A stretch of 64,000 bases of DNA from Somniosus microcephalus (taxonomy: Eukaryota): NCBI GenBank assembly GCA_052327205.1, contig CM126206.1, forward strand, positions 284,580,001 through 284,644,000, read 5' to 3'. Shown piece by piece: positions 1 through 55,696 of this stretch. Numbering within the stretch: the stretch's first letter is position 1; each line of letters starts with the position of its first letter. The translations under genes were made by a program, and so were the position numbers. The notes under the pieces were generated by a model that saw only the letters and a list, made by a program, of their open reading frames with translations, did no database searches and was not told the origin of the DNA.

Positions 1-1532
1 GTGGTGGAGGACATTTTGATGACCTCAAGCCATTTCGAGTGCGCATCCACGGCTATTAAAAACATTGAGTCCATGAATGGACCAACAAAATCAATATGCA
101 CCCGTTGCCATGGAGATGAGGGCCACTCCCATGGGTGTAGAGGGACATGTGGTGGTGCACTTTGGATTTTCTGGCATCCTGAGCAGCTCTTGGTCAGGTC
201 CTCGATTTGTTTATCGATTCCCGGCCACCACACATAAGCCCTGGCTAGGCTTTTCATTTTTACCCCTCCCAGATGACCCTCATGAAGCTCATTGAGCACT
301 CTATCCCTTAACTTGGGTGGAATTACCACTCGGGATCCACACATCAAGGTCCCCCGGCACACTGACAGCTGTTCTCTCCTTGTCGAGAATGCTGGCAACA
401 GTGAGTCGCCATGTGCTGGCCATCCCTTCACCGTCAAATCATATACCCAAGACAGTGTCAGGTCATTTCGGGTTTCCTTTTCGATACAAGCGTTAGTTAC
501 CGGTAGGTATTCAACTATAGTCGAATGGAATATTTCGACAGGATCCACTGCTGGTGCTTCGTCCGCAGTAGGCAGTGGCAGGCGTGATAGCCCATCAGCA
601 TTTCCATGCTGTTTTGTGCCCTTATATTCAATCTCATAGTGGTGCGCCCCTAGAAAAAGTGACCATCTTTGTAGTCGTTGCGCAGTCATCACTGGAACGC
701 CCTTCTTCGGATTAAAAATGGAGACAAGAGGCTGGTGATCAGTCAGCAAGGTGAATTTCTGCCCGTGCAGATAGTGATTGAACTTTTTCACTCCCCACAC
801 TAGGCTGAGGGCCTCCCTGTCAATCTGGGCGTAGTTACGCTCGGCTGAGGTTAGTGATCGTGACGCAAAGGCTATTGGCCTCTCTGAGCCGTCCGAGAAT
901 TTGTGCGACAGCACCGCTCCAATGCCGTAAGGTGACGCATCACATGCCAACCGAATTGGTAATGCTGGGTTGTAATGGGCCAATACCTTTCGATGTGATT
1001 AGTGTTTTGCTCTTCTGGAAAGCTCATCTACATTCGTCACTCTACTTCCATGGCACCCCAATTTGCAGTAGGGTGTTCAGTGGGTGTAGTATTGTAGACA
1101 AATTTGGCAAGAACTTATGGTAGTAGTTTACCAGCCCGAGGATCGACCTCAGTTGTGACACATTTTCCGGTGCTGGAGCCTTGACTACTGCCTCAATCTT
1201 CTCTGGGGACTTATGTAACCCCTCTTTATCGATAACGTGGCCAAAATACAAGATCTGTTTTCTCAAAAACTCGCATTTGGGGCGGATAGCTCGGAGCCCA
1301 TATTCCTGCAATCTAGTGAGCACCTGCTCCAGGTTGGCAAGCTGATCACTGTCATTTTCGCCCGTGACCAGGATGTCGTCCAAATAACACTGGTTCCCTG
1401 GGATCCCTTGCAGGACTTGTTCCATTGCCCTCTGCCAAATAGCCGGAGCTGATGCTACCCCGAATACCAGCCGGTTGTATTGGTAGAGACCTTTGTGGGT
1501 GTTGATTGTGAAGTATTTTTTTGATGCTTCTT

Positions 1533-3164
1533 CTACCTCCATTTGCAGATACGCCTGGCCAGATCAATCTTAGTGAAGCGTTTCCCTCCAGATAGCGAGG
1601 CGAAAATATCTTCAATCCGCAGAAGTGGATATTGTACGGTGTGAAGGACCGGGTTCACTGTTACCTTAAAGTCCCCACAGATGTGAACCTTCCTTGGTTC
1701 CCCAGGCGTGCTGCTCAACGACTTTTTCATCACAGGGACGACGAGTGTAGCCCACTCACTCCAGTCTACCTTGAACAGTACACCTGAACGTTCCAGACTC
1801 TCCAGCTCTGCTTCGACGGCTGGGCGGATCGCATAAGGTACCGGTCTGGCCTTAAAAAATTTTGGGCTTGCGTTTTCTTCAATTTTAATCGTCGCTGTCA
1901 TGCCTTTTAGTGTTCCGAGTCCTTGCTGGAACACTTCTTTCGCGTCAGTTAGGAACTTTGACAGTCGCCCAGGTGTGACGTCGTCATCCTTTTTGTCAGC
2001 CACAGTCAGTGCCTGTATGGAATGCCAATCCAGTTGTATTTTCCGGATCCATTCACGTCCCAGTAATGGTGGTCCTCCATCTTGCAATACATACAGGTCT
2101 AGTTTTGGTGTTTCCTTACCGTTATATATAACGGTCACCCTTATTTTTCCTTTGGGGTAGACTTTTTGCCCCGTGTACGTCTTCAAAATAATTTTTGTGT
2201 CTCTCAAGGGTATGTGTGAGAATAGCCGCTCGTAGTCCCGTCGGTTTATGACTGTTAGGGCTGATCCTGTGTCCAATTCCATCTTTACCTGGACTCCTGC
2301 TATCTTGAGAGTGACCCAAATGGTTCGGTGATCCTCCGTTGTGATCACATTATGTAGTTTCAGACAACTCAGTTCCCTGCTTTCGGAGTCGTTATTACTC
2401 TTTTGTCCGTCTGAACTATTCTCCGTCATCTTATGTACCTTCTTGTACTTTCCTTTGGTAGGTTTCTTATTGCTGGTTTTCTTTCCCGACCTGCAGACTC
2501 GTGCTATGTGTGCTACTTTTACACACTGTCTGCACACTTTGTCTTTGAACCAGCAATCATTCTGGTCGTGTGTTGTTGTGCCGCAGCGATAGCACTTCTC
2601 TGTTCCATATGACATTTCATTTGTGCCATATTCTTGCGGTCTCTGTTGTATCTCTGCAGCGCCCCGTGCTGCTGCTTCATATGATACCGCAATGCTGAAA
2701 GCCTTTTCCAGCGTAAGGTCCTTTTCAGATAAAAGCCGTTTCTGGGTTCCTTCACTTTGAAGCCCACACACAAACTTGTCCCTTAAGGTATCTGCCAGTC
2801 CCGCTCCAAACTGGCAGTGTTTCGATAGTTTGCGCAGTTCTGTTAAATAATCAGCATTGCTTTCATCCTTACGCTGGTTCCGTTTGTGAAACTTGAATCT
2901 TTCTGCTATCAGCAGCGGTGTGGGGTTTAAATGTTCCTTTAGTATCGTTACTATGTCTTCAAAACTCTTTTCCATTGGCTTCGTTGGGGTTACTAGATTT
3001 CGTAATAACCCATACGTCTTTGCACCCATTAAATTTAACAATACCGACGCTTTCTTGTCATCTGACACCTCATTTGCATTGCAGTACACCTCTATTCGCT
3101 CGACATATGTAGTCCAATCTTCGACTTCATTGTCAAATGCGGTGATACTGCCACTCTTCGGCAT
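1533..3164 (-). pseudogene. Gypsy gag-protease-RT (N-terminal) ORF ending in a frameshift
   Basis: MPKSGSITAFD... gag, CYRCG..H..C knuckles, ELDTGS protease, ICGDFK RT motif; close paralog of 8404-10905. Confidence 0.93.
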
Positions 3165-3683
3165 TTTGGGTGTGGTTTAAAATGGCGTCTCCTAATGGCT
3201 TAAAATGGCGTCTCCCGCGCTTTCCTTCCTCCCCCGCTGCTGCCAACGCTGCACTCGGCGGTCCTCGTGGCAATGGCGGCGCCTCGCGGGTTTCTGCGCG
3301 TCTCTCTCTCCCTCTCTCTGACGCTGCTCGGCCCCTGAACACCGGCTGCGCCCTGTGCGCTCTGCCCTCTCTCTCTCTCCCCCGTCGACGCTGCTCGGCC
3401 CTTTGCTGTGCCGCTCGGTCGGGCTCTAGCCCGCCACTGTCCGGGAAGGGTCTGCGCACTACCTGTTGCCAGCCCATTTCGCTGGACCACCTCGACTGGA
3501 AAGCCAAGCCTGGCTCTCGACAGCCTCCCCCGCAATTCTCGAGTCTCTGCTGAATGACTGGGCGGTTGCCCGTGGTCGACGCCCGAGTCTCTGGCCTTGA
3601 CCTCCAATCCACTGATCTCCAGGAACGAATCCCCGGGAGGTGATGCAGAGATGCAGGTAGGTTCGAACTTGCCTCGTCTTCAA

Positions 3684-7452: not shown

Positions 7453-7457
7453 GTTTT

Positions 7458-10400
7458 TGTAGTGTATGTAACCTGAAGAAGGAACTATATTCTGCAGCCC
7501 CTGTATACTGCAGTACCAGTAGTGACCACCCCTGTATATAAGCCTGTGTAGTAACCTTGCATAGTAGTTCCAGTTTTGTCTCTGTTCAGTAAACACCTGT
7601 TATCACCAACTCCTGCAGTCCGTGTCTCAATTACACACGGACGTTACACTGGCGACAAACAGATCTGAACTTACCTACAGTTCTGCACCACCTCACGGGG
7701 ATCCATCCCTGAAGCGAAGTTATTGGAGGTCGAGGCCAGAAGGAAGAAATCCAAAAAGAAAAAAAAACAAACAGCAGAAACGGGCGTCGACCGTGGGCAA
7801 CCGCCCTCTGATTCATCGAATTAGAAGATTTGCAGGAGAGGCTGTCGAGAGTGGGGCTTGGTTATCCAGTCTATGGTGTTCCAGCTAATCGGGCTGGTGG
7901 CAGGTAGTACACTGATCCTTCCTGGGCTGCGGCGGGCTAGAGCTCGATCGGGTGGCTTTTCAACGGGGCCGAGCAGCATTGTCGGGAAGAGGAGAGAGAG
8001 AGAGAGGGTGGAGCACACAGGACGCGGCCGGTGCTACGAAGCCGGGCAGCGTACAGACCCGAGAAGAGGGAGGGAAGTGTCCCATAGGGTCTGCTCTGAC
8101 GACGGGATCAGTAATTAAAATAAAAGAAATTACAAGCGCAGAAAGCCGCGAGCAGCTGCAGTTTGCCACGGGGACCGCGGAGAGCGGCGTTGGCAGCAGC
8201 GCGGGGGGAAGCGCGCGAAGACCATAGGGCGTCGCCATCAAGGCATAAAAACGTCAGCAACAGCACTAGCAGCAGCGGGAAGGCAGAAAGCGCGGGAGGC
8301 GCCATCTTAATCCAGCGGGGAAGAAGGCAAAGCGCAGGAGGCGCCATTTTGTTCAATCGGGGAAGAAGGCAAAGCGCGGGAGGCACCATCTTAGATCTCC
8401 AAGATGCCGAAGACTGGCAATATCACTGCCTTCGATAATGCAATAGAAGACTGGACCACGTATGTGGAAAGAGTCGAAGTATATTGCGAGGCAAATGAAG
8501 TAGCCGATGAGAAAAAGGCATTGGTACTACTAAACTTAATGGGCGCAAGAACGTACGGCCTATTGCGGAACCTGATCACTCCAGTCAAACCGATGGCGAA
8601 GAGTTTTAACGAAATTGTTGATACCCTACAGGAACACCTAAATCCTACACCGCTGCTGATAGCAGAAAGATTTAAATTCCACAAGAGAAATCAGCATAAA
8701 GATGAGAGCAATGCTGATTACCTTACGGAACTACGCGGGCTATCGAAGCACTGCCAGTTCGGAGCAGGACTGGCAGATACCCTACGGGACAAATTTGTCT
8801 GTGGACTCCTGAGTGAAGGAACCCAGAAGAGGTTACTCTCAGAGAAAGAGCTGATGCTAGATAAGGCTTTCAGCGTGGCAGTATCGTACGAAGCAGCAGC
8901 AAGGGGAGCTGCGGAAATACAGCAAAAGCCACAGGAATACGGCACCCATGAAATGACATGGGGATTTGAAAAACGTTATCGCTGTGGCAGAACAACCCAT
9001 GACCAGAAGGACTGCTGGTCCAAGGACAAAACATGCAGGCAATGCAGAAAGATGGGACACATTGCACGAGTTTGCAGGTCCGGGAAGAAGACTAACGACA
9101 ACAAAAAGGCTACTAAGGAACAGTACAGGAAAGTACAAAAGATGACGGACAGTAGTTCCGAAGACCAGAAGAGCGATAGTGAATCCGGGAACAAGAGATT
9201 AACCTGTCTCAAACTACACAACGTAATCGCAAAAGAGGATCACCGAACCATTTGGGTCACCCTCACGATAGCAGGGTCCCAAGTCAAAATGGAATTGGAT
9301 ACAGGATCAGCCCTGACCGTCATGAATCGACGAGACTACGAGCAGCTATTCTCACACATACCCTTGAAAGACACATCCATTGTCTTGAAGACGTATACGG
9401 GGCAGAAAGTATACCCCAGAGGGAAAATAAGGGTGCCTGTCGAATACAATGGCAAGGAAATACAGAAATTGTATCTGTACATACTGCAAGATGGTGGACC
9501 ACCGTTATTGGGATGTGAATGGATCAGAAAGATAAGTTTAGACTGGCACTCCATTCAGGCACTGACTGTGGCTGGTAAAAAGGATGACGACGTCACACCT
9601 GGACGATTGTCAAAAATCTTAGCTAACGCTAAAGAGGTATTTCAACAAGGACTGGGAACTCTTAAAGGCGTAACCGCCTCGATAAAAATAGAAGAGAATG
9701 CAATTCCCAAGTTTGTCAAAGCAAGACTGGTACCGTATGCAATTCGCCCAGCCGCCGAGGCAGAGCTGGAGAATCTGGAGAATGCAGGCATGTTATCTAA
9801 GGTAGACTGGAGCGAGTCGGCGACACCCATCGTTCCTGTCATGAAGAAAACGTTAAACAATAAGTCTGAGGAGCCAAGGAAGGTTCGCATCTGTGGGGAC
9901 TTCAAGGTGACTGTGAACCCAGTCCTTCACACAGTACAGTATCCTCTTCCGAGGATAGAAGATATTTTCGCCTCACTATCTGGAGGGAAGCGTTTTACAA
10001 AAATTGACCTAGCACAAGCATATTTGCAGATGGAGGTTGAAGAATCCTCTAGGAAATATCTCACGATAAACACTCACAAAGGTCTTTATCATTATAATCG
10101 ACTGGTATTCGGAGTAGCATCAGCTCCGGCGATATGGCAAAGAGCGATGGAACAAGTCCTGCAAGGGATTCCGGGGACTCAGTGTTACTTGGACGACATC
10201 CTAGTGACAGGTGAAAATGACAGTGAACACCTTGCCAACCTAGAGCAGGTGCTCACTAGACTAAGAGAACATGGGCTACGAGCCAATCACCCCAAGTGCG
10301 AGTTTTTTAAGAAACAGATATCGTATTGTGGCCACGTGATTGATGAAGAGGGGTTACATAAGTCCCCTGACAAAATTGAAGTGGTAGTTAAGGCTCCAGC

Positions 10401-12651
10401 GCCTGAAAACGTGTTGCAACTGAGGTCATGCCTCGGATTGGTGAATTACTACCATAAGTTTTTGCCGAATTTGGCCACAATTCTGCACCCACTGAACGCC
10501 CTACTACAAACTGGAGTAGCATGGAAATGGAGCGATGAATGTAAGCGGGCCTTTCAGAAGTGTAAAGACCTGATCACTTCAAGAGAAGTATTGGCTCACT
10601 ACAACCCATCACTACCGATAAGACTGGCGTGTGATGCGTCTCCCTGCGGCATTGGAGCGGTACTGTCACATAAATTCCTTGATGGTTCAGAGAGGCCGAT
10701 AGCTTTTGCGTCACGCTCATTAACTTCAGCCGAGCGTAACTACGCCCAGATTGACAGAGAGGCCCTCAGCCTGGTGTGGGGGGTGAAGAAGTTCAATCAC
10801 TACCTGCACGGACAGAAATTTACTCTACTAACTGATCATCAACCTCTTGTCTCCATTTTCAACCTTCAGAAGGGCGTCCCGATAATGACAGCACAACGGC
10901 TATAGAGGTGGTCCCTTTTCCTAGGGGCACACCAATATGACATCGAGTACAAAGGAACTAAACAGCATGGGAATGCTGATGGATTGTCGCGCCTACCGTT
11001 GCCGATGGTGGAAGAAGCACCTGCAGTAGATCCTGTGGAGATATTCCACTCGACCATAATCGAATGTCTACCTGTGACGAATGCAAACATAGAAAAGGAA
11101 ACACGAAATGACCCGACACTCTCCAGGGTCTATGATTTAACGGTGAAGGGATGGCCAGCACATGGCGAACCACTGTTGCCAGCATTCTCGGCAAGAAGAG
11201 AACAGCTGTCAGTGTGCCGAGGAACCTTGATGTGTGGATCCAGAGTAGTAATTCCACCCAAATTGAAGGATAGAGTGCTCAATGAGCTTCATGAGGGTCA
11301 TCTGGGTGGGGTAAAAATGAAGAACTTAGCCAGAGCGTTTGTGTGGTGGCCGGGAATCGATAGAGAAATCGAAGAGATGACCAAGAGCTGTACAGGATGC
11401 CAGAAGGTCCAAAACGCCCCACCACAAGCCCCTCTACATCCATGGGAGTGGCCCTCATCTCCATGGCAAAGGGTGCACATTGATTTTGCTGGTCCATTTA
11501 TGGACTCGATGTTTTTAATTGCAGTGGATGCACATTCAAAGTGGCCAGAGGTAATAAAAATGTCCTCAACCACCACATAAAAAACTATCACAGTCTTACG
11601 AACCATATTCGCCAGAAATGGGCTGCCTGAACAGATTTGCTCCGACAATGGGCCACAGTTTGTGTCTGAAGAGTTCCGGAGGTTCTTAAAGAACAATGGT
11701 GTTAAGCATTACACATCCGCCCCATATCATCCAGCCACCAATGGATTGGCTGAGAGGTTCGTTCAAACATTCAAGAAGGCTATCAAGGCAATGTGTAATG
11801 AAGACATAGCCCTACAACACAAGGTGGATAACTTCTTGTTTGCCTACCGGAATGCGACACATGCGGTTACCAACCAAACTCCAGCCATGATGTTCTTCAA
11901 TCGAAGACTAAGATGCCGCTTGGATTTGGTTAAGCCAAACGTCAGAAGAGATGTGGAGAACAGGCAGTTTCAGAATATGAATGAAAGGCCAACCAGGAGT
12001 TTCAAGATAGGTCAACCAGTTTTGGCCCGGGACTACCGCACAGAGAAATGGCAGCCAGGAACGATCTGCACACGGCAAGGACCTCTAATGTATACCATGG
12101 ACGTTGGAGAGAGCATTGTAAGACGCCATGCTGACCAGATTCTAGAGTCACTGGAAAACATCAAATCTACACCGCGATCCTATACACCTGGTGATGAAAC
12201 CGAAGTACCAATTGCATCTACCTCAGAATCGGTGATATTGGAAGCAGACGAACCAAACAACGACGTTGATCCCGAATCAACTTTGCCAGAAGAACCTGAT
12301 ACCCCAAAGAGGCGTTATCCGGACAGAATCAGGAAGCCTCCTCAAAGACTGAATTTATAATTGATTACTTTCAGCTAATGTATATGGCAACTGTAATTGT
12401 AAATATGTTATTTAATTATTAACCGAATGTTATGTACTGTTTAGCTAAAAGGGGAGGAATTGTAGTGTATGTAACCTGAAGAAGGAACTATATTCTGCAG
12501 CCCCTGTATACTGCAGTACCAGTAGTGACCACCCCTGTATATAAGCCTGTGTAGTAACCTTGCATAGTAGTTCCAGTCTTTTCTCCGTTCAGTAAACACC
12601 TGTTATCACCAACTCCTGCAGTCCGTGTCTCAATTACACACGGACGTTACA
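7458..12651 (+). mobile_element. Full-length Ty3/Gypsy (Mag-like) LTR retrotransposon
   Basis: 191-bp LTRs at 7458-7648 and 12461-12651 (3 mismatches), TSD GTTTT on both sides, PBS TGGCGAC at 7650, PPT AAAAGGGGAGGAA at 12447-12459, single gag-pol frame. Confidence 0.98.
8404..12360 (+). pseudogene. Gag-PR-RT-RNaseH-IN polyprotein in one frame with two premature stops (10903-10905 TAG, 11578-11580 TAA)
   Basis: ORFs 8404-10905, 10984-11580 and 11662-12360 share a frame. Motifs: LDTGS, YLDD, CDAS (RNaseH), HEGH...CxxC, DFAGP, SDNG, NGLAER. Ends RKPPQRLNL. Confidence 0.95.
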
Positions 12652-15739: not shown

Positions 15740-15967
15740 TGACGTAAGAAACTACTAGGCACTTGGTCTGACTATTAAACAAGGCTTTAATCAACTGTTT
15801 CACCACATGGAGATCTAGTTGTCCTTCACTAGTTCCTGTTTACAAAATGTCCTGAGCAAGCTGGGCCCGTGCCCGAGTATTTATACTCTTCCCTGGACAG
15901 CGCCACCAGCAGGCCGCCCAGTATTATTCCATAAGTCATTTCTACATGAATGGCAAGATTCATGTCA
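15740..15967. repeat. Right arm of the inverted repeat (partner 14463-14691)
   Basis: Reverse complement of 14463-14691. Confidence 0.92.
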
Positions 15968-16044
15968 GGGATGTACTTCAAAGCCCATGGCCGCACAGCA
16001 GCATGTTCTGTGCATGTTATAGTAATGTTTCTCATTTTCCACAG

Positions 16045-17275
16045 GGATGCAGAGGGATCCAAGGAGGGGCATCTGAGGAACCAATCCAATCTTGATCAAT
16101 CAGACAGCGGCGACAGACTAGTGTACAGCAACTGCAACAATACATCCCTACAGTTGAAACATCTGTATGAGGAGCATCTGACAAAAGAAGGAAGAGAGGA
16201 GAAATATGAGCCTGCTAGAAACGATGGTGGCGATAACCAAAATGAGCCACTTAATTTTTGCACCTCATTTCCCAGGGCTCCAAAGGTTTCCATCGCAGAT
16301 GATTTATGGGCATCGGAATACTCCAGGGGTCCGTCGAATTCGCAGCCCCCGAGACCTGCGGAGAGGATAAGCAATGTACCTGTACAGGTGGCTAAACCCT
16401 TCTGCGGCAAAGGTAGACTGCTCTCCGAGCCCCAGCTCAGGGGTAACGTGCAGGCCTCTAGCTTTCAAAATGTAGCCCAGAGCTTCAGGGGCGTCAGAGA
16501 GGAGGTGCAGCAGAGCCAGCCCTACTGCGCCTTGCACTACACCGACCTGGAGGGCTACCCATCTGAAAGCTGCAAATCAGAAGATGTCGCGTCAGTCGCC
16601 GATCTCGTTGCTCAAAGGCCGAAGGAGCCTCCCGCAGGGTACTGCAACAGCGCGGAAATGTTCCTCGGGGTGCATGTCAAGAGCGAATACAATCCCGACC
16701 CGCACAATGGAATGGACGGGGCCTTGGGATCTCCAAGTCGTCTGTGGACCGACAGTGGAGAAATGGGGAAAAAGATGGCGGCGAGCTTCCCGGGGCAGTT
16801 GAAGTGTGATTCCAACACGCTGGAGCAGTTGCCACCCTGTGAAAAACTGAAGGCCCTCTTCCCAGCTCCATTCTGCGGGGCCAGTGCAGCCAAGGGCAGC
16901 AGCCTGTGGACGGCGGGCAGTGCCTGTAGCCACAACAGGCCATCGAAACACGATATAGACATGGCTCACTTCAGTCCACAGAGAGCCACCCATTCCCACT
17001 GCACTCGCAGTGACCAACCTGCGGACTGTTTGCAGGCACATGCCTTCTCACGCCATCCTATCCAGGACAAGGGCCCAAGTCAAGAGGCCTATAAAGTGCC
17101 ACTGCAGTTCAAAGGTCGTGACCTAATCCACACAGTCATCAAACGAGAGCCCTCGCCCTCTCCTCCTTGGTCCTGCGACAATCCACACGACATACAGACA
17201 GCCTTGCAAAGAAATATGCCCAGCTGTTTGATAAATGCATTGACTCACAAAATTACACAGAACGCCTATTTGTAA
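16045..17275 (+). CDS. AHRR: Aryl hydrocarbon receptor repressor, last coding exon (repression domain)
   Basis: Acceptor ttttccacAG, in phase with the previous exon (K|DAEGSKEGHLRN). Long open frame with three psi-K-x-E/D SUMO motifs (VKSE, LKCD, IKREPSPSPPW) typical of the AHRR C-terminus. No AHR Q-rich region. Upstream of EXOC3 as in human. Confidence 0.88.
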
Positions 17276-26283: not shown

Positions 26284-28202
26284 GGTGTAGCAGAGAGACA
26301 TAGCTCTTACAAGCTGGAGGCAAGGCACACAATTCTTACTGCACGAGCCAAGATGGAGGATGAACCTCTGAGTCATACCCATAATGCAATGCCACACTAC
26401 CGTATAAACTGGTGTACCAGGACATTGAATACATGACCCATTACCTTAAATACTGGTGAATGTGAACCCTTAATATTTGGCTCCATCTGGTGGATAACTT
26501 AAACATTACATCCCAGATTACTATATCCCTCCCCTCTTAAGTTGAACATTAATTTCTTAACAACATTCTTAAAAAGTCCCATAAGGAAACTCCTTTAACG
26601 ATCGTCCATACTGAACGAATCTAGCAGGTCGTTATCAATTTCTCTGGTGGCTCGTGAGACCTTGGTGAATGTCTTACAGTCAAGTCCCTGCTTGGTTGTG
26701 GTAGAGCCACCTGCTGCTCCTGAGCAGTACTCAGAGTATCTGATTCTGCTACGATGGTTTCCTCTTGACGAAGGGGTCCAGGTGGAACTGGCTCTGTTCG
26801 TGGTGGTGGTACCACCGATGCATTTGGATAACTGGGGGCCAACTTGTCCTCCAACATCTCCTCTGGAACCTCCATTTCGATTTCCCCTTGTCTGGTCAGT
26901 TTCTGATCTACATGTCTGCGTACTACCTGACCAGTTCCCACCATGACCGTATATGATACTGGACTGGTCATTGAGTCTATGACGCCAGGAATCCATTTTG
27001 GACCATAACTGAAATTCCTGGTAAGGACCGCATCTCCTTCTCCAAAACTGCAGCTCTTTGTCCTTCTGTCATGGTTCTCCTTTTGTTTGATTTGTCGATG
27101 TTCCACCTTCCTTTTTAGGTCTGGGTGAACCAGGTCAAGAGTGGAGCGTAGTCGACGTCCTAACAACAGCTCAGCAGGAGAGAGTCCTGTGGTGGATTGA
27201 GGTGTTATTCTGTAGCTGAACAGAACTCGTGACACCTTGGCCAAACTCCCTTCTGCACTTTTTTTCATCATCTCCTTAAATGTTTGTACGGCTCTCTCTG
27301 CAAGGCCATTTGAAGATGGATGATATGGAGCTGAGGTCACGTGCACTATGCCATTGTTTCTCATGAACTCTTTTGTTTCTGTACTCACAAAACACGTGGC
27401 ATTGTCACTTACTACGATCTCCGGTAGCCCTTGATTACTAAAACTCCGATGCAGGCAGTCTATAGTAACAGTAAATAAAGCAGAATTTACAGGATAAACA
27501 TCCATCCATTTGGAATGGGCATCAATGATTATGAGGAACATCTTTCCCATGAATGGACCCGCATAATCTACATGTAATCTTCTCCATGGTTTATCCGGCC
27601 ACTCCCAGGGGTGGAGAGGAGCCGCTGCTGGTGCCTTCCTGTGTACTTGACAAGTGCTGCATGTCTTGACTAGATTTTCTATCTCCTCATCTAGTTTTGG
27701 CCACCACAAGTAACTCCTTGCCAAGGCTTTCATACGTGAAACTCCAGGATGACACTGATGTAGTTGCCCTAGGATAGACTGTCGTGCTGGCTGTGGAATA
27801 ATCACTCGTGCTCCCCACAACACGCAACCATCCTGCACACCCAGCTCTGTCTTCCTGACACTGTAAGGTGTGAAATCAGTCCCTTCCGGATGCTGTGGCC
27901 AACCCCTCATCACATATTCTCAGACTCTAGACAGTACTAGATCTTTACCGGTCCATGTCCTTACTTGTTCTGCGGTCACAATTGCCGTGTCCGTGTCCTC
28001 CAACATCAAAACTCTGTCCTCTGGAGCTGCATGGATAGGTGTACCTGGCAGTGGAAGACGGCTCAAGGCATCTGCGTTCCCATGGTACTTGCCCACCTTG
28101 TAAATGATGACATACTCATATGCCCTCAACGACACTGCCCACCTCTGGATCTGCGGTGACACCATCTGTGGTACTGCTTTCATTTCATTAAAAAGAGATA
28201 GA

Positions 28203-31200
28203 TGTTAAGTACGTGTATTGTATTGAACAATTAACACAAAGACTTAAACGTATAACTCAAACAGGTCTTTACTGGTTGGAGGTAGGGACTGCACGTAGGT
28301 CTTTACTTCATGCCCACAGGCGGGAACTGAGGGGAGATCAGTACCCACAATACTATTTATACCCCTATGGCCAGGAGTGGTACTGCGTATCACTACGCCC
28401 TACAAGTAGTGCAGTCCCGTCCATAGGTTCAAAGTAGCACACATATTACATACACAACATTCCTCCCTTCTTAGCTTTACAGTCATCTCCCCATTTAACA
28501 TAACGTAATAACATATATACATATATAACTTCAGGTTTACATAACAGAATAACATAGATACATAGATAACTTCATGTCAAAACAGATCACAGATTCAGTC
28601 TCTGCAGAAAACAGTTCACAGATTCAATCTCTGTGGTGTAGTCGGTTCACGTTGCTGGAGTGACTCATTCAATAGTCCTTCCATGGATTTAACAGTTTGA
28701 ACTTCCGAAATGAATTGGCTCTGTTCGGAGGGACCACGTGTGTGATCTGGTAGAGGTAATAATGGTTCAGATGGGTCATCTTCTGTTTCGACTTTTCCTT
28801 TTCTGCTTCTTGGAGACTCTCTGGGCTCCACTGTCAGCTGCCAGCTGCATGCGCAGTTCCTCCTTCTCTTCCTCCTTTTTCCGTAGTAGAGCCACCTTCT
28901 CCCGATGTTCCGTAGACTTTCGGTGCTCCTCCATGATTTCTGTATGGTGGGAGTCGAAGTTACAAGTTGGGCAGGGCAGGACATAGTAATATTCGGTGTC
29001 GTCCTGATCTAGGCCAGCGAGAGGGTCTTCTATTTCCTCCATACCCAGCTGGGCGTTAGCCAGCTTTTGTTCCAAGTCCAGACATCTTTCCTGAAGAGAC
29101 TTCTTCATGCGTACCTCTTCATCCAGCTTTTTCTGGGCTTTCAGCAAGTCGTTTACTAATGACCTCATTTGAGATTTTACTACTTCAACTTCTTTTGGAG
29201 ATTGATTGATCGGACTATTCAATCCCTCTACCGGAGCAGCTGTTTCAGCGGTCTGTTGTTCTACGTTGACGTGAGTCAGCGTACTTTTGGCATCCAAGGG
29301 CTGCTCTGTTGCAGTCATCTCAGTCTGTGTTGCCACCTCAGCTCTTCCAATAACCTTTGAGAGCTCCGAACCCCTTTCGTTTGAATATTGAAGTTCGTGT
29401 TCAAGTTTTTCCCATTTCAGAGTCCTGTCCTTCAGCATATGCAGGAGTTGGCTGACCGTTAACTCCTCTGACATCAGACGTTTTGTGTGCTCCTGCTCCA
29501 TTTGCTCCAGCAGCTGCTTCTGTTGTCTTTCCAGATGTTCTCACTCTATATCAAAGAACTCTTTCGTCGCATTCATCTCTTGCTCAAAACGGCGAATCAT
29601 TTGTTCTAATTGCTGTTGCAGTTTGAAATGGAGTTGAGTTCGAGCCCGGTGTCCCTCAGAAATGTGCATGTCAGTAGACTGGACAGACTCAGAATTCTCT
29701 ATCTCAGTGGAATTCTGTGCTGAAACTTTGTCTTTTGCACACGGGTTGGTCTTACCATCATCAGTTCCAGAGTCTGGGTTGATTATGTTCACCGAGTTCT
29801 CACTCGTTATTGTTTGTAGGAAATGCCAGTCCATATTCATTTTCCTAATCCACTCCCGTCCTAGTAGTGGAGGACCTCCTTCAGATATCACATATAAGTC
29901 CATTATTTGACTGTCTTCGCCCTTGTGGACCACTGCAACCTCTATTTTCCTGATGGGGTACACTCTTTGCCCCGTGTATGTTTTCAATATAATCCCCGTA
30001 TCCTGTAGGGGAATATGTTGGAATAACTTTCCGTAATCTTTCTTATTTATGACCGTCAATGCCGATCCAGTGTCCAATTCCAGTTTTACTTGGACTCCTT
30101 CTATCTGAAGAGTGACCCAAATTGTCTGGAGGTCTGCACCCTTACCAGCGTTGAGTACTCTTAAGCTAGCCAGTTCATTACAGCTTAAGCTAGCCAGTTC
30201 ATTACTGCTAGCGTCTGAATCGGACTCCTGTTCGGTCACCTTGTGTACCTTTGCGTATTTTCCTTGCGGTGACTTCTTGTTGCTGGTCTTCTTCCCTGAC
30301 CTGCATACTCTAGCTATATGTCCAAGCCTACCACAAGTTCTACATTCTTGGTTTTTAAACCAACACTGGTTCTGATCATGCGTTGTCTTTCCACAACGAT
30401 AACATTTGCCAGAACTCACACCCAATTTGTGTGCACTGAGCTCCGGTGACCGTAGCTGCATTACTGCCGTGCCTCTCGCTGCGGCTTCGTGTGCTGCTGC
30501 CATAGTGACCGCCTTCTCAAGCGTCAGCTCATTCTCCTCGAGGAGTCGCTTTTGTGTATCCTGTTTAAATAAACCACACACAAATTTGTCTCGTAGTGCA
30601 TCTGTCAGTCCCGTTCCAAACTGGCAATATTTCGCTAATTTACGCAATTCCAGCAAATATTCAGCATTGCTTTCATGCTGTAGCTGCCTTCTGTCATAAA
30701 ATTTAAATCGTTCCGCTAGCATCAGCGGCGTGGGGTTTAGATGATCTTTCAGGACAGTAACAATCTCATCGAACGTCTTATCCGTCGGTTCATCTGGTGA
30801 TAACAGGTGTTTCAATTGCCCGTATGTCTTCGCACCCATTAAATTTAATAATGTTAGAGCTTTATCTTGGTCACGAATTTTATTGGCCTTACAATAATTT
30901 TTTACTCTTTCAACATATATGGCCCAATCTTCGAGGTCACTATCAAAGGTGCTAATATTCCCGTGTTTAGGCATCTTCTTCTCTTCTCGAGAACAACACA
31001 AGTATTGCTTCACTTATTTCTTGTTTCTGAAAATTCTTATTAATTTTCTAAGATGGCAGTTTCCCACTTCTGCCTTCTTCCCCAGCGGTTTTCCCGCGAA
31101 AAATGGCGGCTTTCCCGCGCTTCTCGCTCTCCCCGCCCACTTCAATGGCGGTTTTCCCGCGCTTCTCGTCGCTGACTTTCAGCCCGACTGCGGCCCTTAT

Positions 31201-31905
31201 CTCCTGTGCGATCGCTGGTGCGCCGCCCGCCCGAAGCGGTTCTCAGCCCTTATCACCGGTGCGATCGCTGGCCCGCTAAGCGCCTCCCGCTTGAAGCGGC
31301 TCCCGGCCTCTGGCTCACCCGCTCGCGCGGCTCTTGCTCGCTCCCTCCCGGGCTCTGGCTTACCCGCTCGCGCATTTCACCGCGGCTCTTATCAGGGATT
31401 GCGATCGCCCTTATCTCCCGATCGGTGACCCTGTCTTTGCAGCCAACGCTGCTCGGCTTACCCACGAGGTTATGGAGGCTTCAGGGTCCTAATGCCTGTC
31501 GCTTCCAGTCGCTGGAAGCTGTCAGGATTTCTGCTGCCCTTCAGTTTTCAGTGGGGTGTTGAGGATTGAAACCTCTCTTCAACGTCCTGTCTTTGGACGA
31601 AGCCGCCGTGGAATAACTGCCGCAGGGTTCGAACCGACTCGTCGCCAATGTTAAGTATGTGTATTGTATTGAACAATTAACACAAAGACTTAAACGTATA
31701 ACTCAAACAGGTCTTTACTGGTTGGAGGTAGGGACTGCACGTAGGTCTTTACTTCATGCCCACAGGCGGGAACTGAGGGGAGATCAGTACCCACAGTACT
31801 ATTTATACCCCTATGGCCAGGAGTGGTACTGCGTATCACTACGCCCTACAAGTAGTGCAGTCCTGTCCATAGGTTCAAAGTAGCACACATATTACATACA
31901 CAACA
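28203..31905 (-). mobile_element. Nested non-autonomous Gypsy-derived LTR element: gag-protease fused to captured host-gene fragments, no RT/RH/IN
   Basis: 257-bp LTRs at 28203-28459 and 31649-31905 (3 mismatches), TSD ATAGA (28198-28202, 31906-31910), PBS TGGCGACGAG, PPT AAGAAGGGAGGAA; interrupts the host RNaseH. Confidence 0.97.
28776..30974 (-). CDS. Chimeric ORF gag-PR-(STK10/SLK coil)-(OPTN coil)-(DNAJC21 zinc finger), with one in-frame TGA at 29541-29543
   Basis: MPKHGNISTFD gag, two CCHC knuckles, LDTGS. ORFs 29541-31013 and 28776-29501 are in the same frame. Downstream segments resemble host proteins (see findings). Confidence 0.8.
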
Positions 31906-34900
31906 ATAGAAGAGGTTTATGATCAGTGCATATGGTGAATTTCCTGCCATATATGTACTTGTGAAACCTCTGTAACCCAAACATTACTGCTAACCCCTCT
32001 TTATCTAACTGGGAATAGTTTTTTTCCGCTGGTGTCAGAGTTCGAGACATAAACCCTATTGGTCTTTCTGTTCCATCTTCCAAGCTGTGTGAAAGAACCG
32101 CCCCCACCCCGTAAGGTGAAGCATCACAAGAGAGAATGATGTCTTTCTCTGCATTGTAGTGAACCAGCACATCCGAGGACAGCATCAGTTTCTTGGACTG
32201 TTCAAATGAAACCCTCTGTTCCTCTTCCCACTGTCACTGTGTCTCCTTACGCAGAAGTTTGTGAAGAAGTGCTAACACTGTTGCCAAGTTTGGTAAAAAT
32301 CTGTTATAATAGTTTAGCAGTCCCAGGTAAGCTTTTAACTCAGTCACATTGGTAGGAGCTGGGGCCTCCTGCAGTGCTTGTACCTTCTCCTTGATTGGAT
32401 GGAGCCCGGTGGCATCCACTCTGTGTCCCAGGAACATGGCCTCATTCCCCAGGAAAGTGCACTTACTCCTCTTGAGCCGTAACCCAGCCTTATCCAATCT
32501 TTGTAGTACCTCTCTCAGAGTGCTCAGATGCTCCTGGCCGGTTCTTTCTGTCACCAGAATGTCATCCAGATAGATTGAAACATGTGGGATCCCTTGCAGT
32601 ACACCCTCGATAGTCCTCTGGAAAATAGCTGGACTAGATGAGACACCGAATGGTAAGCGGTTATAGGTAAACAAACCCTTGTGTGTATTTATGGTTACAT
32701 ACTTCTTGGATTCCTCATCTAGTGTAATCTGCAAGTATGCATGACTCATATCCAGCTTCGTGAATTTCTTCCCTCCAGCCAGGTTCGCAAAGAGATCCTC
32801 TGTTTTGGGAATAGGATACTGTTCTAGTTTAGACACCCTATTTACTGTCAATTCATAATCTCCACAGAGTCTTACCGAATTGTCCGGTTTTAAAACAGGT
32901 ACAATGGGAGCTGCCCATTCTGAACATTTCACGGGTTCCAGTATGTTCTCGCTCAAAAGACGGTCAAGCTCAGCCTCTACCTTCGGTTTCATGGCATACG
33001 GCACAGGTTGTTGTTTAAAAAACCTTGGCAGTGCCTCCTTGTCTACATAAATCTTAGCTGGGGGGCCATTAAATGTGCCAAGTTCTTCCTTGAACACGTT
33101 CTCATGTTCAATCAACACTTCTTGCAAAGACAACTGTTTGCCTCCCTCTATTTGATTTATTGCTCCCCAATCTAATTTAAGTTCTTGTATCCAGCCCCGA
33201 CCTAACAGGTTTGGTCTGGAACCCGATACTACAACTACAGGTAGCTGTTCCACGGTGTCCCTGTGTTGCACAGTTACAGTAGCTGTACCCAATGTCACCA
33301 CTCGTTCACCGGTATATGTTTTAAGCTGCATAGAACAAGACTTTAACTCTGGAACTTTTGCACGGTTCCACAATTTTGAGTACTCCTCCCTGTTCATTAT
33401 GGTCACACCGCATCCTGTATCCACTTCAAAGTTGACCTTAGAGTCATTTACTGTCAGTTGCAAAGTGATAGGATCCACTTTTGGAATGTTCTCTACCATA
33501 CTATGCATTATGCACATGTCGTCTTCTTTCTCAGCTTCTCCGCTGATGTAATGTGCTCCCTGTTTTTTCACTTCTCTTCCTAGGTTTTGCTTTTCTCCCC
33601 CTTTTGGTTTGTATTCCTCCATGGTTGCTTTTGCCCTGCATGCACATTTTATATGTCCTTTTTTCCCACACTTGTGGCACTTTTCCTCCAGAAACCTGCA
33701 TTCCCTCGCCAGGTGATCACCATTGCATCTATAACACACCTTCACATGCTCATGTTGTGGTTTCTGATGCATGTTTAACATGTGCACAATAACCTGACCT
33801 GCAACTTGCTTTGTAGTAGCCCAGTCTGAACCTTATATTTCTTTTACATCTTGGTTCGCTGTCTCTATGGCTTGAGCAAGTTCCAACGCTTTTTCATATG
33901 TAAGCCCAGTCTCGGACAATAATCTCCGCTGCATTCGATCATCCATTATCCCGCAAACTAGCCTATCTCGCAGCATGTCTTTCAGGTTGTTGCCGTAATT
34001 GCAATCGTGTGCCAATTTCCTCAACACCGCTACATAATCCAATGCAGTCTCTCCCGGTTTCCTGTTCCCTGAATTAAATTTGAAACGCTGTACAATCTCA
34101 CTCAGTCTGGGATTGAAATGGTCCTTCAGCAAGGCCAGTAAGTTAGCAAATGATCTGTCTCCAGGCTTTTCAGGACTGCATAAGTTTCTCATCAAACTAT
34201 ACGTCTGACTTCCCACGGAAGTGAGCAAAATCGCTCTCCTTTTTCCGACGTCATTTATATCATTTGCTTCAAAGAAATGCATCAACACCTCGCAGTATTC
34301 ATCCCAGGTCTGCGTCTGAACATCAAAAGCAGAGATCTTTCCTACCGTAGCAGCCATGATCCGTTATTCAGTGCTCCTTTTCTTTTTTTTTCTTCGTCAA
34401 GATGTGATCTGTTGGTCCTCGTCGCCAATATGTGATATCCGAGTGGTAAGGTCAGAAACTGAGATAAGCGAGATATTAGGAACAAAACCCAACTGTTTAT
34501 TTACACGGTGAAGCAGAGAGACATAGCTCTTACAAGCTGGAGGCAAGCACACAATTCTTACTGCACGAGCCAAGATGGAGGATGAACCTCTGCGTCATAC
34601 CCATAATGCAATGCCACATTACCGTATAAACTGGTGTACCAGGACATTGAATACATGACCCATTACCTTAAATACTGGTGAATGTGAACCCTTAATATTT
34701 GGCTCCATCTGGTGGATAACTTAAACATTACATCCCAGATTACTATACAAAATTAATCCAATTGAGTAGCAAAGTGTCTGTTTGCTTTCCAATTGGTTTG
34801 GGAAGGCAGTGCACCCGGAAGATGGAGCAATGGCGGGAGGGTGGGGGCGGAATGGTTCAAGGTGGAAGGTCATGTGATGAAACCTTCAGGAATACGCTCA

Positions 34901-53483: not shown

Positions 53484-54817
53484 AAAAAGCTGGAGATGTA
53501 ACAGATATTAAGCAGGTGCAGAGGGTGGGGGGAGGAAGGAATTGAAGGAACAGTCTGTGCTTCTGTAAGAGGCAGGAAAGATAAAATGTTGCAAATGGGA
53601 ATGGCAAAATCATACAGCATGCAAAATGGTGGCAGGGGTTATAGTTTGAAATTATTGAACTCAATGTTGAGTCCAGAAAAATGTGTAGTTTTACTGTTTT
53701 AGTATATGTGTATAGATCCCTTCCACATCACAAGTGCACCACTGATCACCAGGGCAAAAAAAATCAATGAGATGTGTTCATTGCCAGGAGTTAGTCATTG
53801 GCGATGGGAGATACCCCTCTGTTTATATTCCCCACATGACTTTCTCCTCGGGCAGTTTACCAACTGCACAGAGACAGTGAACACACCACTTGCTCCCAAG
53901 CCTCTGAAATGTTACTGTTGAACTGGCAGATAGGAAATGTGCAAGAACAACCCACTAATGCTGTTCTATCTTCCTGCTGAGCACCTGCCCACAATTGGAT
54001 GAATAGCAACTGAGTAGATTGGGGAATCGTGGGCACAAACTCACCTCACCATTCCATGACACCATCTATAGCCAGCTTTCCTCATATACTGGAGGGACAG
54101 TTAGATTTAGGTAGGATTAAATTTTGCAACATTGCAGCAAGATATGTTCAAACACTGTTCAATGCCCATCTTTGCAAACACATTTAGACCTGTGGTTATA
54201 AATTCAGCTACTCTCACAAGCAAGTGTCTGTAGACAGCTTGGAATCGGGCAGGTTTCTATTAAGGAAAAAAATGAAATCCTGTGCATTGAGCGCATCCAA
54301 AAATATAACCCAGTGGGAAAAGAATTACTGTTTTTAAAGCATTGTGAATGCATTCTCTCTACAACCCCTTCCATCCCATATTGTCATAATGAGACACGAA
54401 CCTTGGAAAAAAGCAACAGACTCATGAAATAAATGCAAGTGTGTTGTAAACAGGGAGGTTAACTGCCATTGGGAATAAATAAAATGTGTCTCAGCTTGCA
54501 TTGTTTGAACTTTTTATTTTATTTAGCAGCATATAAATTTACAGCACAGAAGGAGGCTGTTTGGCCCATCGTGTCTTTGCTGGCTTCAAAAATTAACCAA
54601 ATTTTCCTTAAAAGATGTAATGGTCTCTACCTTAATCCTCTAAAGAAATTTATCCTAACCCCTCTCCTCACTGTCTTAGTAAAAGATTTGCAAAACATTA
54701 TTTGAAATTATGATCCTCATTGAAAAGATTTTTCTCTGTTTGTATTCTTGTGGAGCAATATTACTGCCAACCCAGTGACCATACACCAGCTAAAGCTCCT
54801 TCTTGTCTGGCTTTCAG

Positions 54818-55499
54818 TTCCAGAGATTGTGCAAGAGGCCTGTGAACTGATTGAACGAGGAGAGCTGCTTTTAGCCCATCGAAAGCTGATGGACCTGGAG
54901 TGTTCCCGCGATGACCTTATGTATGAGCAGTATCGTATGGATAGCAAGAACACGCATGACATGAAACTCATCCAGGCCTACTTCACTGAGGTGCAGAACC
55001 TCTCGGAGCAAATGGGAAAGCAGATCTGGATGCTGGTGCAAAGGTCTTCGGTAACGGTCCGCAGTGATCCAGCCCAGGTCGTCTCAATGATTCGAATCAT
55101 TGAGAGAGAGGAAAAAATTGATAAGCGGATGCTTGACCGGCAGAAACAGACAGGGTTCATTCCTCCCGGCAGACCAAAAAGATGGAAAGCCAAGTTGTTT
55201 GCGGTGCTAGAACAGACTGTTGCCAATCGGATTGAGGCCAGTCAGTCCGATACGCGGGAGCTAGACAAAATGTGGCTTGTGCGTCACCTGGAGCTCACGC
55301 GCAAGTATGTTCTTGAGGACTTGCTGGTCATGAAGAACTTGATGGCGCAGTGTTTTCCTCCTCACTACAACATCTTCAAAATACTTCAGAATTTGTATCA
55401 CCAGGGACTAGTGGCTCGTGTGGAGGAACTTGCCTCCGAGGATTTGGAGGCCAATGAAATTGTTTCACTTCTGACCTGGGTTCTAAATACATATCACAG
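54818..55499 (+). CDS. EXOC3: EXOC3 coding exon 3
   Basis: VPEIVQE...AHRKLMDLECSRDDLMYEQYRMD...PPGRPKRWK...EANEIVSLLTWVLNTY; 682 nt with AG/GT boundaries. Confidence 0.98.
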
Positions 55500-55696
55500 G
55501 TAAGAGTTTAATTTGACGATGCACGACTGCATGTGGGGTATAAAACTGCAGCTTCCCTCCTGTGATTTCTCCCAGTATGGTGAGTTCCCATTCTGACCCA
55601 CGTCATCAGAGTGTCGGGAGTTGCAGAAATTTCCTGGTTGGTGGGGAAAACCGGAAGAAAATTAGAGGCGCGTCCCTGTGGGACCAAAAATATATA

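Follow-up and report, generated by a model that had tools for sequence, protein, structure and literature searches.

How does a retrotransposon without a pol gene come to carry pieces of three genes of its host, fused behind its own Gag and protease, and what has kept the fusion moving? The question is raised by a 64,000-nucleotide stretch of the Somniosus microcephalus genome (assembly GCA_052327205.1, contig CM126206.1, positions 284,580,001 to 284,644,000 of the forward strand; hereafter the window), in which a 3.7-kb long terminal repeat (LTR) element on the minus strand (28203-31905) lies nested in the ribonuclease H (RNase H) region of an older Gypsy element. We report that this element belongs to a family whose history of captures from STK10, optineurin (OPTN) and DNAJC21 can be reconstructed with near certainty, and that its founding capture was very probably one turn of a circular RNA and not an mRNA. 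As an overall explanation, we consider it likely that a non-autonomous Ty3/Gypsy lineage arose by serial template switching and that its Gag-protease open reading frame (ORF) has been selected in cis.

Structure of the element and identity of its cargo

The window element is a non-autonomous Ty3/Gypsy LTR retrotransposon, defined by an LTR pair, a primer-binding site (PBS), a polypurine tract, a short target-site duplication (TSD) and the lack of pol. As described in an initial annotation made from the sequence alone, its 257-bp LTRs differ at three sites and are bounded by a 5-bp TSD, and the PBS and polypurine tract are in place; the PBS at 31638-31647 presumably corresponds to tRNA-Ser, and no tRNA gene occurs within the 64-kb window. 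Domain scanning confirmed gag with two CCHC knuckles and a protease with a DTG motif, and detected no reverse transcriptase (RT), RNase H or integrase core in the element. Its gag is related to that of a gag-pol element at window positions 8395-12357. Related elements with protease, RT, RNase H and integrase in that order exist in the genome, namely the parent clade described below and the relative in the window. A single frame starting at 30974 runs through Gag and protease and continues for about 345 codons (some 350 in the annotation), interrupted by one stop.

A homologue search returned shark STK10 and OPTN as the sole cargo matches (26 of 6,280 candidates). The kinase-derived part matches STK10 (77% over 64 amino acids, and a second piece) and not SLK, which the annotation had left as an option, and the OPTN coiled coil that it had recognised matches at 72% over 159 amino acids. 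Its third assignment, the DNAJC21 C2H2 finger, also held: the C-terminal 99 amino acids of the window copy found no homologue as query, and DNAJC21 was reached via the less diverged sister copy L028 (E 7e-18), the window copy itself aligning pairwise at 43% over 51 amino acids (E 3e-7). A comparison of the cargo with PDB sequences gave no significant match. The cargo is intronless as claimed, the host STK10 and OPTN introns being precisely removed; for DNAJC21, two host exons are seen, with a 13-nt deletion near their join. The annotation had counted three captures, which is correct for the number of genes, and had missed a fourth stretch (28784-28664), out of frame and derived from STK10 exons upstream of those in the first piece. 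The features of the element, in window coordinates and in the order of its own reading direction, are as follows (E7 to E11, STK10 exons).

31906-31910, unstranded: TSD, 5' side, 5 bp; an own 5-bp TSD was found in 12 of 12 examined copies of the window family (family D)
31649-31905, minus: 5' LTR, 257 bp, three mismatches to the 3' LTR
31638-31647, minus: PBS, 10 nt, a motif that recurs in sister families
30975-31637, minus: 5' untranslated leader with short internal repeats
30300-30974, minus: gag, capsid region and two CCHC knuckles (Retrotrans_gag and zf-CCHC, both weak and under the curated cut-off)
29832-30116, minus: aspartic protease, DTG motif
29653-29805, minus: STK10 cargo, remainder of E8 (large circle exon, 3' part) after internal deletion (92% and 77% to the host exon)
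29476-29657, minus: STK10 cargo, parts of E10 and E11 fused without intron (PKK coiled coil)
29541-29543, minus: internal stop in the cargo frame, private to the window copy
29032-29483, minus: OPTN cargo, amino acids 226-384, four host exons fused with the introns removed (families B and C have six)
28785-29031, minus: short STK10 E7 remnant, then DNAJC21 cargo with C2H2 finger (28905-28973), helix and basic tail
28776-28778, minus: family stop codon, closing a 732-codon ORF
28664-28784, minus: out-of-frame end of STK10 E7 and 5' part of E8, forming the permuted circle's second half, at present 3' untranslated
28616-28663, minus: residual C-terminal tail of integrase, not in frame in the window family
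28460-28472, minus: polypurine tract
28203-28459, minus: 3' LTR, 257 bp
28198-28202, unstranded: TSD, 3' side
26325-34747, minus: older Gypsy element (LTRs 26325-26525 and 34547-34747), its RNase H region split by the cargo element

The cargo-bearing families form a nested series

A DNA search with the window element found about 35 loci at 91-99% identity (best 34 of 6,687 candidates scored). All 12 family-D copies that were fetched have a TSD of their own and LTR pairs differing at 0-4 of 257 sites, which bears out the suggestion of a non-autonomous family that moved as a unit. The internal stop is missing from all 11 sister copies, eight of which are unbroken for at least 745 codons from stop to stop. 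When the genome was searched with the host proteins, longer intronless STK10/OPTN copies with frames of about 850-1,100 codons appeared, and 20 of these, picked among the top protein matches, were fetched and assigned to family A (8 loci), family B (11) or family C (1). Family A encodes Gag-protease-STK10, family B equals family A with a 417-nt STK10 deletion and OPTN, family C equals family B with DNAJC21, and family D, the window type, shows further deletions. Judged by these sequences, families A to D are a nested series with the window element as its late member; the captures were serial, as annotated, and the stepwise intermediates survive as separate families.

To count the families, junction patterns were searched in the whole genome; each control gave 0, and the counts are floors, with the full length at each place unverified. 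The back-splice junction of family A (see below) occurs in 1,110 copies, the long STK10-OPTN junction of families B and C in 2,094, the window-type junction in 4,278 and the STK10-DNAJC21 junction in 5,608, and the DNAJC21-derived finger core was found with a two-allele pattern at 10,515 places. The RT-start motif of the pol-bearing parent clade occurs 21,843 times; an exact 28-nt pattern gave 17 parent-like matches, of which four were chosen and all four have pol, a pattern that undercounts the helpers by comparison with the motif. Element length stays at 3.7-4.8 kb across all exchanges. The copy-number check proposed in the annotation thus yields thousands of copies, and the misassembly that it had named as a danger, together with chance resemblance, has a negligible probability, since the same junctions recur in thousands of copies with TSDs of their own and in independent RNA reads. 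A domesticated Gag gene, which would occupy a single fixed locus without LTRs, is ruled out by the thousands of young copies and by the private stop of the window copy.

At G000:C13:166779796-166786938 two copies stand in tandem with one LTR in common. Family D words are also present in DNA-like sequencing runs under two organism labels.

STK10 cargo in circularly permuted order

In family A the STK10 cargo runs from residue 385 to 704 and then from 290 to 388. We located the host STK10 gene on C8 and found that the cargo matches five of its exons at 98-100% identity in the order 3' part of E8, E9, E10, E11, E7, 5' part of E8 (the exon numbers are our own, from the exons found, and may overlook a small upstream exon). 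The E11 donor is exactly joined to the acceptor of the upstream E7, with an overlap of only 2 nt, and the other junctions fall within exons, at microhomologies of 4-13 nt; an exact non-colinear exon-exon junction is also the mark of high-confidence retrocopies derived from circular RNAs (circRNAs). The circle exons sum to 135+675+131+124+180 = 1,245 nt, or 415 codons without a stop, and the family A insert has the length of this circle plus 11 nt. The pol-bearing parent L040/L043 matches family A in two blocks, one ending at the RT start and the other reaching from the integrase tail across the LTR. Its homology at these two points to the one circle position at which the insert starts and ends amounts to 10 nt and to 7 of 8 nt. 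An insert of one circle plus 11 nt between two microhomologies present in the parent makes one turn of a circle the most likely first capture. The chance of one switch landing on both exon borders is roughly 1.5e-4. The window copy has kept the permuted STK10 order, and the junction itself has been overwritten by OPTN.

The serial template switching proposed in the annotation therefore stands as far as spliced RNA is concerned, and its mRNA donor gives way, for the first capture, to a circle-like one. The same permuted order could come from a linear exon-repeat RNA made by trans-splicing, from a duplication in the host genome or from two switches onto ordinary mRNA, and some observations weigh on that side. 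A trans-spliced linear RNA with repeated exons would yield an identical junction, and the main letter of PMC4897178 says that non-colinear junctions can arise otherwise. The stretch unique to family A and host STK10 is covered at a depth of 0-6 in both RNA runs (described below), too low to show the circle, whose signal family-A transcripts would mimic. The term circSTK10 did not appear in the literature searched here (subscription journals, Repbase and Dfam being outside its scope), and, the two switch sites of the parent being alike, a pol-deleted intermediate could also fix an insert of one period. Against these origins, the E7 acceptor pattern has three matches in the genome, one inside the host gene and two on other contigs, and this single occurrence in the gene argues against a tandem genomic duplication; both borders are exact, and the insert equals one period plus 11 nt. 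Taken together the linear and duplicated sources appear distinctly unlikely, and a single turn of circular RNA is the donor we prefer.

Three further observations concern STK10 and the parents. The host intron after E9, within the circle, apparently starts with a GC donor (G000:C8:167193683). A single intronless copy of the STK10 C-terminus (94% at the amino-acid level), comprising exons downstream of the circle, lies at G000:C3:354658271-354658948 as a separate retrocopy. The second parent type, L044, has the integrase tail seen in families B and C, of which L030 keeps a longer piece, which suggests that 3' ends were also exchanged between helper subfamilies.

Later captures and exchange of the backbone

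The OPTN piece of families B and C comprises six near-whole host exons with introns precisely absent; it enters and leaves the STK10 sequence at homologies of 9 nt and about 13 nt. Its start lies 8 nt inside an exon and its 3' homology block extends to the last base of the sixth exon, for which a rough, post hoc chance of 0.4-1.7% was estimated, and this piece may stem from a circle too, copied almost in full (910 nt). The DNAJC21 piece is 98% identical to the host exon in family C and 82% in family D. The switch points of STK10 and OPTN show microsimilarity and no poly(A), and DNAJC21 probably also entered at microhomologies.

In family D a 7-nt gain puts the end of the ORF back in the DNAJC21 frame. 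This frame ends behind a basic tail, so that neither the integrase tail nor the second half of the STK10 circle is part of the coding region any more. Nucleotide divergence between families D and C is 21.9% in gag and 19.2% in protease, far above the 8-10% of the cargo, suggesting that the cargo moved onto another backbone. From family A or B onwards the cargo shrank, STK10 from 415 to about 110 in-frame codons and OPTN from about 295 to about 150. One family-D copy, L010, is without the 7-nt gain and its frame reads on for 783 codons into the STK10 remnant.

As to the DNAJC21 donor, the 5' exons of the host gene lie at G000:C1:2653208-2675274 and the finger exon at C1:4790500-4792921 (L038), 2.1 Mb apart, in an exon order that is wrong for the strand and with 500 N nearby, consistent with a local misassembly or a duplicate; the host exon upstream of the second half of the finger was not located.

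Transcription and mobilisation

RNA was examined in two runs (X7 and X8) of one study under organism label B, of which 24% and 31%, respectively, were read and aligned to a family-A copy as reference, not to the window copy. In X7 the sense strand prevails about 5-15-fold over most of the internal region and about 3-fold in the weakest bins; 148 reads cross the B/C/D deletion, 324 carry the window-type OPTN junction, and 332 and 333 carry pol-bearing ends. The corresponding figures of X8 are 124 reads across the deletion and 211 with pol-bearing ends. Families B, C and D and the helpers are transcribed; family A and host STK10 are nearly silent in the stretch unique to them. Reads from element transcripts in X7 are two to three orders of magnitude more numerous than those from host STK10. 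The shared LTR, PBS and gag, the young LTR pairs and the helper transcripts point to mobilisation in trans by a helper, RT and integrase being putatively borrowed from the abundant, transcribed pol-bearing clade.

A proposed history

We propose that the series was built by template switches inside retrotransposon particles. While copying the integrase tail of the parent RNA, RT would have switched, through a microhomology, to a five-exon STK10 circular RNA packaged in the same particle. There it would have gone once round the circle, passing the back-splice junction, before returning to the parent at the start of pol; such an event would produce the anatomy observed in family A. A limit of one turn would be natural if RNase H destroys the template behind the enzyme, so that RT leaves where the template has already been consumed. 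Because the circle is free of stops, pol would have been replaced in frame. An in-frame deletion and the capture of six OPTN exons over the back-splice junction would then have given family B, the insertion of the DNAJC21 finger family C, and more in-frame deletions together with recombination onto another gag-protease/LTR backbone family D.

A bolder version, which we put forward as doubtful, would hold that Gypsy particles preferentially co-package circular RNAs under the one-turn limit (a full turn of STK10, a near-full turn of a six-exon OPTN circle), and that a captured zinc finger of the double-stranded RNA-binding type was retooled under selection into a cis-acting module behind more than 10,000 copies. 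If true, this would be the invention of a protein domain by a selfish element, with every intermediate kept in one genome.

Selection on the frame, the cargo and the finger

Indels occur in multiples of three in seven of seven cases between families D and C upstream of the finger and in two of two between B and A, and they support selection for one open frame. Between families A and D the capsid, knuckles and protease are under purifying selection (P<=0.002). Cargo residues appear weakly constrained at most: 49 residue changes common to D copies were observed against 54.3 in a spectrum-matched, stop-free null (P=0.09), and 40 against 45.5 for STK10 and OPTN together (P=0.07). The NG86 ratios of family D are 0.33 for STK10 and 0.46 for OPTN, compared with 2.47 for the out-of-frame STK10 remnant (33 codons); cargo selection read from ratios below 1 was rejected, as it is not significant under the spectrum-matched null and the ratios overstate constraint. 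By analogy with the mouse intracisternal A-particle (IAP) element 1-delta-1, the selected feature would most likely be a Gag-protease ORF that is translated and acts in cis on the RNA encoding it. The coiled-coil cargo would mostly be open-frame filler, with a possible true exception in the C-terminal finger and the basic tail.

The annotation had taken the fusion itself to be selected, for example as a particle-associated coiled-coil adaptor for trafficking, autophagy or immune evasion; the open frame is kept, and the adaptor now looks very unlikely. In its favour, all cargo is in sense orientation and in the host frame, the NG86 ratios lie below that of the remnant, and families B and C keep the region of the LC3-interacting region (LIR) motif, which we take to lie before residue 226, where the OPTN of the window family begins. 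That region is missing from the 4,278 window-type copies, however, the residue deficit is not significant, and the cargo was progressively deleted. The NEMO, CC2-LZ and finger domains of OPTN were found by Pfam in none of four element ORFs scanned, and the domain scan detected no kinase or ubiquitin-binding domain in the cargo. In Ty3/Gypsy particles, moreover, the sequence after the protease sits inside the capsid and is usually cleaved off. The shrinking cargo, the lack of OPTN domains and the loss of the LIR region argue against an adaptor and for a translated Gag-protease ORF acting in cis. Selection might instead act on the cargo as RNA, host sequence being tolerated by small-RNA silencing or setting the packaging length, and the open frames merely avoiding nonsense-mediated decay. 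The steady element length, the strong transcription of cargo-bearing families and the weak amino-acid constraint agree with this, but the read counts of pol-bearing relatives are comparable, and the family whose cargo is closest to the host genes, A, is nearly silent, so that we regard it as unlikely.

A possible, though tentative, alternative keeps the same history and makes the DNAJC21 jaz-type finger with its lysine/arginine-rich tail the selected part, as an RNA-binding or nuclear-import module favouring the element's own RNA over that of the helper. Finger-bearing copies dominate (10,515 against 1,110 for family A). Of the 23 finger residues, 15 are not those of the host-like form (34.8% of nucleotides, against 8-10% around it), yet none of the four ligands has been lost and their spacing is unchanged (combinatorial P=0.008, post hoc). 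Host-type fingers occur at 427 places, window-type fingers at 3,456, and an intermediate form makes up 42 of the first 100 finger-core matches listed, an abundance that suggests stepwise change and argues against one replacement; the change can be read as a loss of 6 nt compensated by a 6-nt duplication, which would have shifted the core phenylalanine. The last 12 residues contain 8-9 lysines or arginines in families B/C and D, whose basic tails were independently derived, and four in family A. The host-like finger scores above the cut-off of zf-C2H2_jaz, but the window finger falls below it, and its amino-acid change does not exceed the null (15 against 14.5). AlphaFold, run on the C-terminal 87 amino acids as a single sequence, predicted one long helix, and a knuckle of low confidence that is uninformative. 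The abundance of finger-bearing copies may stem from the new gag/LTR backbone, and families A and B spread without a finger. Another donor for the remodelled finger was sought and rejected, the four weak matches (27-44% identity) being no better than DNAJC21.

Several points weigh against our preferred explanation, in which Gag-protease is selected in cis and the cargo is mostly filler. Sampling families A, B and C from the top protein matches biases towards open frames and thus towards frame retention. Between families A and B the capsid region alone is significant (P=0.012), the protease giving P=0.81, and the A-to-D constraint in gag and protease may in part date from helper lineages, since the backbone was exchanged. 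Nearly every cargo comparison shows slightly fewer amino-acid changes than expected (P 0.04-0.23, STK10 and OPTN), and 'filler' may understate the constraint on the cargo. The organism label of the RNA runs may differ from the species of the genome, and X8 is not strand-clear.

Surroundings of the element

Two pol-bearing Gypsy relatives lie in the window, one at 8395-12357 on the plus strand (LTRs 7457-7648 and 12460-12651) and one at 1-3176 on the minus strand. Both have a single-frame gag-pol with 62-64% identity to the Gag-protease of family A; the former contains two stops and has an integrase tail of the same type at its end. On the plus strand, an exon-like match to Sec6/EXOC3 (54724-55500, E 1e-44) suggests that the window may sit inside a host exocyst gene, and a 441-codon open frame at 15950-17272 has no Pfam match at E 0.01.

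Relation to known systems and significance

Compared by sequence organisation, the family is of the same kind as LTR-mediated retroposition in animals (Tan et al. 2016, PMC5131818), set apart by mechanistic clarity and scale. Like the retrocopies described there, it combines host pieces free of introns with flanking LTR-element sequence that is discontinuous, shows microsimilarity at the switches, moved secondarily as non-autonomous units and has several genes per locus (the mouse 'Super' retrocopy holds four genes at a single locus). Unlike them, its first donor was probably a circular RNA (the stem 'circ' is absent from the main text of PMC5131818), its cargo is in frame with Gag-protease, parent and intermediates survive, and its copies exceed 10,000. 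Maize Bs1 is likewise an LTR element without pol, with three host-gene pieces in a chimeric ORF; it differs in being a plant element of one to five copies, and permuted exon order is not reported in the passages on it in PMC5131818 and PMC13317346. The mouse circRFWD2 pseudogenes (Dong et al. 2016, PMC4897178; 33 high-confidence copies, their mechanism called 'mysterious') share a non-colinear junction in the genome, no poly(A) and LTR association, whereas the shark family shows both switch points, the pol-bearing parent, a one-turn insert, an open frame and 1,110 copies of the junction; the comparison is with the main letter, whose supplements may contain flank structures that foreshadow some of these features. 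Mouse IAP 1-delta-1 is also non-autonomous and pol-deleted, and its translated Gag fusion aids its own retrotransposition in cis with a helper in trans (PMC7411935, citing Saito et al. 2008); unlike the shark families, in which the cis effect is putative, it is an internally deleted endogenous retrovirus that carries no host-gene cargo.

The annotation had drawn a parallel with acutely transforming retroviruses; Bs1 and LTR-mediated retrocopies are closer parallels than those viruses, the shark parent being of Gypsy type and the cargo lacking a kinase. Acutely transforming retroviruses have in common with the shark family a Gag fused to captured spliced host sequence and a dependence on a helper, which is probable for the shark elements. 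In the shark family, by contrast, no env or infectious stage was detected and no intact signalling domain, and amplification was in the germline and not by tumour selection. No paper in the literature searched here described the family, or a case in which the capture of a circRNA by a Gypsy element had been resolved.

The mechanism of circRNA pseudogenes was left open in the main letter of PMC4897178, and the shark family offers a testable model of entry at a microhomology, one turn and exit; if the circular donor is true, it shows how circular RNAs can enter genomes. With captures, deletions and backbone swaps preserved in thousands of copies per step, selection on a non-autonomous ORF can be measured and need not be guessed. 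For the shark itself, element transcripts will bias the annotation of STK10, OPTN and DNAJC21 and the measurement of their expression, and the three genes may become exposed to element-directed small RNAs. At least 11,600 cargo-bearing places (1,110 + 10,515) would, if full length, amount to roughly 0.7% of the 6.45-Gb genome, an estimate on which gene capture is a visible contributor to genome size.

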